From the NCBI GenBank assembly GCA_964348555.1, contig CAYGED010000001.1, positions 1 through 34,230 of the forward strand: 34,230 nucleotides of DNA. The letters run 5' to 3'. Origin of the DNA: an uncultured Coxiellaceae bacterium. Lineage in GTDB: Bacteria; Pseudomonadota; Gammaproteobacteria; Coxiellales; Coxiellaceae. The position numbers and the translations under genes were made by a program. Below, in pieces: positions 18,857 through 31,183 of this stretch. Position 1 is the first letter of the stretch. Each line of letters begins with the position of its first letter. The notes under the pieces are model-generated. The model was given only the letters and a program-made list of their open reading frames with translations, did no database searches and was not told the DNA's origin.

Positions 18857-18909
18857 TAAACCTAATAAGTTATTTTGTCGATTATAATCAATATTTTTAA
18901 GTGAATCTT

Positions 18910-19233
18910 ATGCCGGATAAAGACCCCACAAATTGGACTCTAGCAACATGGGCATTAGGTTTTATAATGGCGTCCATTGGCGGTGTAGTTAACTGGTATA
19001 ACAAGGTGAGAGGCGGGCATACGAAAGGGCATGACATTTTCGCGCTTGTGTTTGAGATTATCACCAGTGGTTTTGTTGGGATGATTGTTTTTATGGCGCT
19101 TGATGCAATGGGGCAGCCTATTGGATTGTGCGCCGCTGGCGCTGGAGTTGGCGGTCACATGGCAACGAGGTTGTTATTTGCGCTTGAAAGGTTGATAGAT
19201 TCAAAATTGAAGAGTTTTAATTCAAGAGACTGA
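18910..19233 (+). CDS. holin (multi-TMD)
   Basis: 107 aa from ATG 18910 (the track start 18901 is GTG). Hydrophobic segments: TLATWALGFIMASIGGVVNWY, IFALVFEIITSGFVGMIVFMAL, IGLCAAGAGVGGHMATRLLFAL. Charged C-terminus; directly upstream of the endolysin. Confidence 0.6.
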   Translation: MPDKDPTNWTLATWALGFIMASIGGVVNWYNKVRGGHTKGHDIFALVFEIITSGFVGMIVFMALDAMGQPIGLCAAGAGVGGHMATRLLFALERLIDSKLKSFNSRD

Positions 19234-19239
19234 ATACAT

Positions 19240-19284
19240 AGCCGCCACGCCTCTTAACAATGCGCAACCTTGGCGGCTTTTTAA
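19240..19284 (+). terminator. hairpin plus T-run between holin and endolysin (possible partial terminator)
   Basis: AGCCGCCA (19240-19247) pairs with TGGCGGCT (19271-19278) and is followed by TTTT. The 23-nt loop is atypically large. Confidence 0.35.
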
Positions 19285-19296
19285 AAACAGGGAAAT

Positions 19297-19767
19297 ATGA
19301 TTTTTAGCAAAAACGGAATTGAGTTATTAAAACGGCTCGAAGGTGCAAGCCCTCATTTATACAATGATTCTGCAGGACTGCCAACAATCGGGGTGGGGCA
19401 TTTGCTTACGCGGGATGAATTGAGTTCGGGTAAAATAAATATACTGGGAGTACCTGTTAAATATTCTGGTGGTTTAACCGTGGATCAGATTGAAAAACTC
19501 TTATCGCATGATGTTGCATTTGCAGAGGGCGCGGTCAACGTTTGCGAAGTTAATCTCACACAAAATCAATTTGATGCGCTGGTTTGTTTTGTGTTCAACG
19601 TTGGCCGGAGCGCGTTTGAAAAGAGCACATTAAAAAAGCACCTTATGTCCGGTGATGTAAGCAAAATCCCAGATCAATTCCGGCGATGGATTTACGCGGG
19701 CGGGAAAATATCGAAGGGGTTGATTGGGCGAAGGGAGCAGGAAATAAAATTATTTTTAACTAATTAA
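19297..19767 (+). CDS. endolysin, GH24 (T4/P22-type lysozyme)
   Basis: Catalytic triad spacing matches T4 lysozyme: E15 (RLEG), D24 (NDSAG), T30 (PTIGVGH). No N-terminal signal or SAR segment. Confidence 0.85.
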   Translation: MIFSKNGIELLKRLEGASPHLYNDSAGLPTIGVGHLLTRDELSSGKINILGVPVKYSGGLTVDQIEKLLSHDVAFAEGAVNVCEVNLTQNQFDALVCFVFNVGRSAFEKSTLKKHLMSGDVSKIPDQFRRWIYAGGKISKGLIGRREQEIKLFLTN

Positions 19768-25796: not shown

Positions 25797-25991
25797 TATT
25801 TTCCTTGATTATTTATTAAAATTCCATATACAATCATCTACTATCTTTCCTTGTTTATTACCGTCTCTCCGGCATGTCACGTCTAGTTCGCTGGCTATTG
25901 TCTTCCGACGTTCTACAAAGTGGCGCACATCGGCCATGACGCAATTATGGAAACCAGCTTCCACGCCGCACCTGCTTCCGGCGAGTTCATA

Positions 25992-26007
25992 ACAACCAAC
26001 TGGTTGT
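25992..26007. promoter_or_regulatory. 7-2-7 palindrome ACAACCA-AC-TGGTTGT (candidate operator)
   Basis: Perfect 7-bp arms with a 2-nt spacer, too short for an RNA loop. Overlaps a minus-strand TTGACA (26010-26005). Confidence 0.35.
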
Positions 26008-26116: not shown

Positions 26117-26145
26117 TTGACATATAAATTACTAGCTGGCAATAT
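26117..26145 (+). promoter_or_regulatory. candidate rightward early promoter (TTGACA-17 nt-CAATAT) with an AT-rich upstream tract
   Basis: Consensus -35 at 26117-26122 and -10-like CAATAT at 26140-26145. The predicted start coincides with ATG 26152. Confidence 0.4.
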
Positions 26146-26151
26146 AACAGC

Positions 26152-26385
26152 ATGAGCAAATTAATCGATTATATAAATGCAATGCCCGAGCTAGACCGTC
26201 ATGCGTTTGCAAAAAAATGTGGGACTTCTGTCGGGTACATTCGCAAGGTAATGTCGTCCAGAAAAAAACTATACTTTGGCCCTGCGATATGCCGGAAACT
26301 TGAGGTTGAGACTAACGGGCTGGTTACGAGAAAAGAATTGCGGCCAAAGGACTGGCATGAAATCTGGCCAGAAATTCAACAATAA
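26152..26385 (+). CDS. Cro / YdaS-like HTH regulator (77 aa)
   Basis: HAFAKKCGTSVGYIRKVMS is a helix-turn-helix. First gene of the rightward operon, divergent from the early-left operon. No Shine-Dalgarno upstream. Confidence 0.7.
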   Translation: MSKLIDYINAMPELDRHAFAKKCGTSVGYIRKVMSSRKKLYFGPAICRKLEVETNGLVTRKELRPKDWHEIWPEIQQ

Positions 26386-26471
26386 ATTCAACTCTCCCTA
26401 TGTTTGTTGAATCTACCGCAGAGTCCAGCGCACAACATATCGTGCGTAGACGGATGGACTTAAATACAAAT

Positions 26472-26654
26472 GAGATTATAGTAAAGCGCTTTGAGAAAGT
26501 AGGTTGGCTGTTTCGCAATCGTGTCACAAGCCACGGATATTGCGATTAATTTGCTAGGCGCTTGTGCCCTGGTGGAGCAGAAAGAATCGAGCCATGCACC
26601 GGGGGCTTAAGACCCCGGGAAGCGGAAAGTATCAAAGTGCTTTACTATGATTTC
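26472..26654 (+). ncRNA. candidate structured RNA element (unknown family)
   Basis: A 23-bp uninterrupted helix pairs 26472-26494 with 26632-26654 (20 Watson-Crick pairs plus 3 G:U pairs, plus sense only). Internal hairpins at 26513-26545 and 26599-26618. No ORF in the region. Confidence 0.5.
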
Positions 26655-26665
26655 TAGGAACTTTT

Positions 26666-26908
26666 ATGATAAATAACGAAAACAAAGTACCTCCGCCAGG
26701 CAGCCAGGATGCAATAGACCAGGGATGCAAGTGCCCTGTATTGGATAACGGCCACGGGCGCGGAGCTTATATTAAAGATGGTGAGTGGATATTTTGGTAT
26801 TCAACTGATTGCGAGTTGCACGCAAAACAAGTCAACCAAGTTGAAAATCTTATACCACATCATGATCACACAATCAGAAATAAAAGAGGTTGTTGCAGTA
26901 AAAATTAA
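26666..26908 (+). CDS. small Cys/His-containing conserved phage protein (80 aa)
   Basis: AGGA 6 nt upstream of the ATG. The PPGSQDAIDQGCKCPVLDNGHGRG...WYSTDCELH pattern is recalled from many phage hypothetical proteins and is probably metal-binding. Confidence 0.6.
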   Translation: MINNENKVPPPGSQDAIDQGCKCPVLDNGHGRGAYIKDGEWIFWYSTDCELHAKQVNQVENLIPHHDHTIRNKRGCCSKN

Positions 26909-30910: not shown

Positions 30911-31183
30911 GTGGTGCCCGCTCTTACTGCTGAACCGTCAGGGCATAAAATGATTGGATGGGCAAAAGTCAATCAGGGATGAAATACGTAATGTGTGGGG
31001 AGGGTAAAGACCGGCGCACATTATAGAAAGCTCACCGGGGGGATAAGTGGATGCAAAAGAGCAACACCGCGTCGAGGTTAGCACGGTGACCACGCAAGGC
31101 TGACGGGTCGTAAAAGCGCTCATGGGCAGTTTTACGTGAAGGCTCAGGGATTGTCTGGGTCTTTGCACTAAGGGCAGTTGACT

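Follow-up and report, generated by a model that had tools for sequence, protein, structure and literature searches.

The window, by which we mean the whole 34,230-nucleotide stretch of DNA analysed here, is a phage genome with structural and lysis genes on its left side. The abiF RNA motif is matched at the Rfam gathering score at 19241-19278 (plus strand, 46.5 bits), with the holin gene (18901-19233) on one side and the lysozyme gene (19297-19767) on the other; no abiF gene adjoins it. The leftward early operon carries the YqaJ and RecT recombination genes, and the rightward early operon runs in the order cro-like helix-turn-helix gene, small Cys-rich ORF, T5orf172-like gene, ParB-like gene, SF2 helicase and primase. 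The cro-like gene matches PHROG 35 ('transcriptional repressor', 5.9e-13) and, under the Pfam cut-off, YdaS_toxin (2.2e-5). The small Cys-rich ORF matches no Pfam and no PHROG family, and homologues of it were found by protein search. In the same rightward operon, 3' of the primase gene, the Betaproteobacteria-1 RNA is matched at the Rfam gathering score (30988-31108, plus strand, 60.4 bits, E = 6e-9), which may hint at a betaproteobacterial host. The leader of the leftward early operon contains a segment of ~190 nt (about 25808-26000), with a minus-strand 51-aa GTG ORF at 25809-25964, that is missing from three of the relatives described below (L018, L049 and L045); on this comparison it is a second optional insertion in the control region.

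The first optional insertion, and the subject of this analysis, lies in the 280-nt gap between the stop of the cro-like gene (26385) and the next ATG (26666). Both flanking genes are encoded by the plus strand, with nothing terminator-like detected between them in a scan of the region; promoter-like matches within the element are no commoner than in shuffled sequences, and the region has no tRNA or tmRNA. Its features are as follows, with L049 and L018 denoting the two relatives that carry full-length copies.

26152-26385, plus strand: cro-like helix-turn-helix gene.
26386-26461, plus strand: leader, outside the insert, with covariation across seven distinct sequences.
26472-26494, plus strand: 5' arm of the closing helix P1, GAGATTATAGTAAAGCGCTTTGA, from the inverted repeat and the pair table.
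26495-26504, plus strand: purine-rich joiner GAAAGUAGGU from P1 to P2, invariant in the window, L049 and L018.
26505-26509, plus strand: 5' strand of P2, UGGCU, with AGCCA at 26590-26594 as its predicted partner in the consensus fold (provisional).
26513-26545, plus strand: optional hairpin of 7 + 4 bp, from the window's own minimum-energy fold.
26550-26576, plus strand: variable hairpin P3, from the consensus fold.
26590-26594, plus strand: 3' strand of P2, AGCCA, within the invariant block AAUCGAGCCAUGCAC (26585-26599).
26599-26618, plus strand: hairpin P4, with a CCGGGG/CCCCGG stem and an 8-nt loop GCUUAAGA that contains the self-complementary CUUAAG.
26624-26631, plus strand: joiner GGAAAGUA from P4 to the 3' arm of P1, its AAAGTA invariant in 5/5 copies.
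26632-26654, plus strand: 3' arm of P1, TCAAAGTGCTTTACTATGATTTC, from the inverted repeat and the pair table, ending one base before AGGA.
26656-26908, plus strand: AGGA ribosome-binding site (26656-26659) and small Cys-rich ORF (ATG 26666, 80 aa).

The first-pass annotation had found no credible ORF in the gap, and comparison with relatives bears this out. Neither short ORF of the gap (26400-26549 and 26562-26657) is conserved, and L045 has ACG in place of the ATG at 26400. The relatives show indels of 1, 2, 3 and 29 nt, while L018 carries an in-frame TAA; the frame-breaking indels together with this stop rule out the element as coding sequence.

A repeat finder returns the two P1 arms as an inverted repeat of 23 nt per arm, 87% complementary and 137 nt apart. 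The pair table confirms that the arms pair without gaps, through 20 Watson-Crick pairs and three wobbles (G:U 26474/26652, U:G 26477/26649 and G:U 26488/26638), just as had been annotated. This is the longest ungapped helix of Watson-Crick and G:U pairs within a 300-nt span anywhere in the 34-kb window on either strand, the runner-up having 16 pairs, and the minus strand of the 280-nt gap offers no run longer than 13. Over 3000 shuffles of the gap, the maximum was 20 and 23 was never reached. One detail of the first description needed correction, in that the 3' arm is separated from AGGA by a single base (26655) and not by two. Structure is favoured on the plus strand, as had been proposed: the plus-strand RNA folds at -75 kcal/mol (z = -5.9, 0/200 shuffles as good), against -57.8 kcal/mol (z = -3.5) for the minus strand. 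Rfam 15 gives no match in the element region of the window at the gathering score, and searches of the window, L018 and L049 at E <= 10 returned only chance-level matches (sX8, Six3os1 and Glutamine-II, the last scoring 12.4 bits where the threshold is 33), so that the earlier statement that no known RNA family is recognisable holds.

Useful relatives were found through protein searches with the cro-like and small ORF proteins and with cluster members; all are metagenomic phage contigs, several of them from Hainich samples. Including the window, the element occurs in five variants. L049, which is 89.6% identical to the window over leader and element, and L018, about 76% identical over the same stretch, are full-length; L028 (sample ERZ1292625) is partial, with only the 3' 82 nt, since its contig begins there, and has GCAC in its 3' arm in place of the window's GTGC; and in L020/L021 the element has decayed, with the 3' half present, the 5' arm degenerate and no excess of folding energy (z = -0.3). 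At least four distinct relatives have an empty site (L045-48, L015-17, L019 and L050/L052). In these the leader joins the ribosome-binding site of the next gene directly, and what is lacking, with clean boundaries, is the segment around 26470-26655. Since the empty junctions are alike, emptiness is apparently the ancestral state and the element apparently an insertion; its absence from close relatives makes it accessory.

Presence of the element does not track similarity of the cro-like gene or of the leader. L045, which is empty, has nearly the same cro-like gene as the window and a leader 93% identical to it, whereas the most divergent relative, L018, has the element; filled and empty sites are diverged by 7% or more. 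Such a patchy distribution would be explained by repeated gain and loss, or by recombination via the conserved flanks. A tie to one replication module was considered and rejected: the element occurs alongside differing helicase types (an SF2 helicase in the window and L049, DnaB in L018) and is absent from other modules. In L049 a different gene lies 3' of the element, which ties the element to the junction and not to one downstream gene.

That gene in L049 (L049:1742-2467 region) is an ORF of 177 aa from the ATG at 1742, or of 187 aa from 1712 according to the gene caller. Its opening residues, MKDENKIPVPGSD, duplicate the N-terminus of the small Cys-rich ORF (first 13 codons), and the intact small Cys-rich ORF comes after it at 2288. 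From its sequence, the 177-aa ORF looks like a gene inserted by recombination at the start region of the small ORF. L018, and only L018, carries a further insert of ~160 nt between leader and element (L018:2706-2865), with hairpins of its own (CCTGGGAAAATTTCCAGG and CCCCGGAGAGTACGGGG) and possibly a 29-codon ORF, so the same junction has been struck more than once. The helicase gene of L020 (L020:2529-3935) contains the intein domains Hom_end_hint and Intein_splicing.

P1 is well kept where the element is full-length. Its 5' arm is identical to that of the window at 21/23 positions in L049 and 20/23 in L018, its 3' arm at 22/23 and 20/23, and in the relatives 97% of the cells of the stem are paired. 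The window has 23 contiguous pairs and L018 has 22; L049 pairs at 22/23 positions, the exception being an A:C mismatch at 26481/26645. In four columns only one side varies, and every such change gives a plus-strand G:U or U:G; the G:U at 26488/26638 is shared by 3/3 full-length copies. Changes on both sides of a pair are lacking inside the stem, the poorly aligned outermost pair aside. The first-pass annotation had taken wobbles compatible with one strand only as the signature of selection on RNA. The stem does contain five wobble columns, against one A:C column in L049, and the hairpin at 26599-26618 contains two against one C:A; by our own arithmetic this tally has a probability of about p = 0.1 under random transitions. 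The argument is thus suggestive and not decisive. A similar division applies to covariation, which had been named as a check on the helix: the stem is conserved and P4 shows compensatory changes, but no double changes fall inside the stem itself.

The consensus fold was computed from the three full-length copies and runs in the order P1, joiner GAAAGUAGGU, P2 leading to the variable arm, CUUAAG hairpin, joiner GGAAAGUA and back to P1. The segment 26482-26512, which includes the first joiner, is invariant in all three copies, and GAAAGUAGGU presumably has a role in the junction. The heptamer GAAAGUA occurs twice, on opposite sides of the junction (26495-26501, at the start of GAAAGUAGGU, and 26625-26631), and the two copies could, judging from their sequence, form a two-fold symmetric purine-rich internal loop. 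The pairs of P2 are all invariant and therefore provide no covariation for or against the junction helices. The P2 and P2b pairings are provisional. The single-sequence fold and the consensus fold differ in P2, P2b and P3, the second of these being a pairing of CGAUU (26543-26547) with AAUCG (26585-26589) that flanks P3. The P3 region has two pairs with changes on both sides and several wobbles. The hairpin at 26513-26545 is present in the window as first described, but erosion of its outer stem in L049 and its complete deletion from L018 show that it is dispensable. An alternative pairing of 26584-26591 with 26645-26653, from a consensus fold of the 3' halves, was rejected, since L020 shows one compensatory change and three broken pairs.

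The hairpin at 26599-26618, likewise present as first described, is conserved in a more informative manner. Its stem is CCGGGG/CCCCGG in the window, CCAGGG/CTCTGG in L049, CCAGGG/CCC(A)TGG in L018, CAGCGG/CCACTG in L028 and GCAGGG/CCTTGC in L020 (all stems anchored on the loop), so that three pair positions have changed on both sides among the five copies and one cell is truly unpaired, while CTTAAG in the loop is invariant in 5/5 copies. On this comparison P4 is the best-supported helix of the element. L020 lacks the 5' arm and retains the covarying CUUAAG hairpin, so the stem is not indispensable for the role of the 3' half. For the structure as a whole, 13 to 58 of 500 shuffles reach the observed covariation values, and these statistics are weak because there are only three full-length copies.

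Conservation along the element is itself patchy. Identity to L018 is 18/18 at 26495-26512 and 14-15/15 at 26584-26598, compared with about 76% in the flanking genes, and falls to 21/38 in the variable arm, the most divergent stretch. This pattern is consistent with a functional RNA whose core is conserved and whose periphery varies, and it argues against recent wholesale transfer.

Immediately upstream of the insert, the leader at 26386-26461 is a conserved structure in its own right. Hairpin 1 pairs 26386-92 with 26406-12; hairpin 2 pairs 26421-27 with 26455-61 and 26428-33 with 26442-47, around an internal loop whose AGWCGGA sequence is conserved. Among the seven distinct sequences, 97% of cells are paired and 8 pairs are changed on both sides; 0/500 shuffles are as good, and sliding the partners abolishes the signal. 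The leader is found in all relatives except L020/L021 and L054, with or without the insert. We take a TTGACA hexamer at 26117, ~240 nt upstream of the leader, to be the -35 element of the rightward early promoter, although the promoter scan did not flag it. The leader has no Rfam match, and local alignment of leader or element with the leftward leader scores within the shuffle range, which gives no second copy. In HK022, about 270 nt separate the transcription start from putR (PMC9378689); given the missing second copy and Rfam match, the analogy with put is only positional. On sequence grounds the leader is nonetheless a conserved RNA at the nutR/putR position and a better nut- or put-like candidate than the insert; alternatively, it is a candidate processing site.

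Tentatively, and with less than full conviction, we read the element as an accessory self-folding RNA module that is processed by RNase III and uncouples cro from the downstream messages. The 183-base module (26472-26654), sitting between the conserved leader and the ribosome-binding site of the next gene, would be co-transcribed with the rightward early operon and would adopt a Y-shaped fold made of a 22-23 bp closing stem, a purine-rich three-way junction, a long variable arm and the short CUUAAG hairpin. Its paired ends would bring leader and ribosome-binding site together again, and keeping the two side by side in this way would explain why the insertion is tolerated. An uninterrupted duplex of 22-23 bp, or two turns, is the textbook requirement of RNase III, and the window and L018 both offer at least about 20 bp of uninterrupted double-stranded RNA. 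By analogy with such substrates, we infer that the host RNase III would cut the long duplex and so separate the cro-like message from the messages of the small Cys-rich ORF and the replication genes; the cut could also free a core RNA of roughly 140-150 nt. On this evidence we regard the element as a probable accessory to RNA processing rather than a control switch that the phage needs.

Several other readings of the same observations have to be weighed against RNase III processing. The first-pass annotation had set aside a MITE-like selfish DNA insertion, in which the arms would be terminal inverted repeats served by a transposase acting in trans and the RNA fold a by-product. That dismissal was too quick: presence/absence polymorphism bounded by inverted repeats is what an insertion is expected to produce. 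The element is short and non-coding, its 23-nt repeats coincide exactly with the ends of the indel, the empty sites appear to be the ancestral state, and its distribution is independent of cro and leader similarity, L018 being filled and L045 empty. Moreover, conservation is highest in the arms while the core varies, and near-invariant arms without double changes could mean that a protein such as a transposase recognises them as DNA. Correia elements behave likewise once in transcripts (PMC2649163, PMC10969869). No convincing target-site duplication was found: the window flanks AAAT/TAGG contain no direct repeat, and L049 has at most a degenerate AAAG(G)ATT on both sides. Each phage has one copy, always at the same junction, with none elsewhere in the window or in about 290 kb of related loci. 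Dispersed copies were sought in IMG/VR, the JGI metagenomes and the genomes of 185,579 species, a set in which the host genome is possibly not included. The 3'-domain pattern gave one true match in JGI metagenome contigs (L028, at the same junction), 0 in IMG/VR and 0 in the 185,579-species collection; in IMG/VR the arm pattern gave only chance matches in which the partner arm is absent, two further core patterns gave nothing, and the leader pattern gave one chance match. Annotated phage, E. coli genome and plasmid collections contain no similar DNA. Conservation also reaches asymmetrically inside the arms (26495-26512 and 26584-26631), and the inner hairpin covaries, with G:U on the plus strand only. 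We consider a MITE-like selfish insertion rather unlikely, though it is the main rival. A site acting as DNA, be it an operator, a partition site, a replication origin or a single-strand initiation hairpin for the ParB-like, helicase or primase genes, is very improbable. Replication genes do lie within 1-2 kb downstream, hairpins of single-stranded DNA tolerate G:T pairs too, and the 5' arm holds a perfect 10-bp palindrome, AAAGCGCTTT; this palindrome is broken, however, in the 3' arm of every copy, sites like it are not enriched in the window and do not occur in the promoter region, and the element keeps company with differing replication modules and is lacking from relatives.

Two further readings assign the function to the RNA after its release or during transcription. 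DicF is an sRNA processed from a prophage operon, downstream of a cro-like gene, and offers a precedent for a trans-acting non-coding RNA gene within the operon, whose released Y-shaped core would be a decoy or regulator, perhaps as a dimer through the CUUAAG loop. The junction strands and the loop are invariant beyond the needs of pairing, the CUUAAG hairpin with its compensatory changes survives decay of the stem in L020, and the accessory, moron-like distribution suits an add-on function. This reading must contend with a promoter and terminator signal no stronger than chance, with a tiny family, with the failure to identify a target or partner, and with loop-loop dimerisation that is suggested purely by sequence; we think it improbable. 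More speculative still, and a long shot in our judgement, is a mobile RNA cassette that lands at early-operon junctions of leader and ribosome-binding site, is excised by RNase III and acts in trans as a Y-shaped RNA; if so, it might dimerise via CUUAAG kissing loops and serve as an anti-defence decoy or as a regulator of the host or of rival phages. The suggestion that the element is an RNA antitermination element equivalent to lambda nutR or HK022 putR is not supported by the comparison with relatives, and we give it hardly any weight. The element does lie downstream of a cro-like gene as putR and nutR do, no N-like family was recognised among the 20 ORFs scanned (N proteins being small and poorly modelled), and HK022 put acts as a protein-independent RNA of two stem-loops (PMC9378689). 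It is, however, absent from at least four distinct relatives, among them close ones sharing the operon layout, has no second copy in the leftward leader and no terminator-like site after it, and with 183 nt and a three-way junction is unlike an RNA of about 70 nt and two stems; the conserved feature is the leader at 26386-26461, which suits the role better. A riboswitch was also considered and rejected, P1 being a very stable helix of 23 bp and not a short competing one, and no Rfam aptamer matching the element.

If the reading as an RNase III-processed accessory module is right, phages carry optional self-folding RNA inserts in the leaders of their early operons, akin to chromosomal palindromic insertions but with a conserved structured core, and the locus would be a tractable case of an insert tuning the balance between cro and replication-gene expression. 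The element is rare, with five variants that are all metagenomic, and its practical impact is limited for now. The leader possibly matters more than the insert, being a candidate for a control RNA that needs no protein in a group of uncultured phages, of which several come from groundwater.

Among known phage RNAs, the element resembles HK022 put in being an RNA of the early operon downstream of cro with no dedicated protein; put measures about 70 nt, has two stem-loops and is present in both early operons (PMC9378689), whereas the element has 183 nt, a closing stem with at least three inner helices, a single copy and an accessory distribution. The leader at 26386-26461 is like put in size, in its two stems and in position. 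The early sites of T7 and the lambda N leader are cis-acting RNase III hairpins in polycistronic early phage transcripts, and the element shares with them about two turns of double-stranded RNA beside a ribosome-binding site. Each of those sites is a fixed part of its phage and consists of one hairpin, in most cases with an internal loop, while the stem described here closes a 137-nt multi-helix core and is optional. Retron msr-msd RNA is likewise a structured RNA flanked by pairing inverted repeats (a1/a2); we rejected a retron ncRNA as an explanation, since none of the neighbouring ORFs scanned has a reverse transcriptase domain and Rfam gives no retron match. Intervening sequences of 23S rRNA are optional inserts of ~100-200 nt whose ends pair in a long stem and which RNase III removes. 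The element is similar in that its paired ends make it tolerable to the host RNA, but those sequences occupy rRNA helices, and a cut in the element, which lies in an mRNA leader, would divide the message.

The closest parallels are the Correia elements (CREE/NEMIS) of Neisseria and the ERIC elements of enterobacteria, which are small and non-coding, have inverted repeats of about 25 bp, leave intergenic sites either filled or empty and form a long hairpin once transcribed. In the case of Correia elements, the transcribed inverted repeats form a hairpin that RNase III cuts or binds, and expression of neighbouring genes changes (PMC2649163, PMC10969869). Our element differs from both in having no sequence similarity to them and no detectable TA or other target-site duplication, and, where they are dispersed in tens to hundreds of copies, it occurs once per genome, at a fixed junction and in a phage; its core, unlike theirs, has conserved junction strands and a covarying hairpin. 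No described RNA family matches it, and its behaviour resembles that of palindromic insertions in transcripts and of RNase III processing hairpins. It departs from these in architecture, with a long stem closing a conserved three-way junction, and in setting, at the leader junction of a phage early operon.
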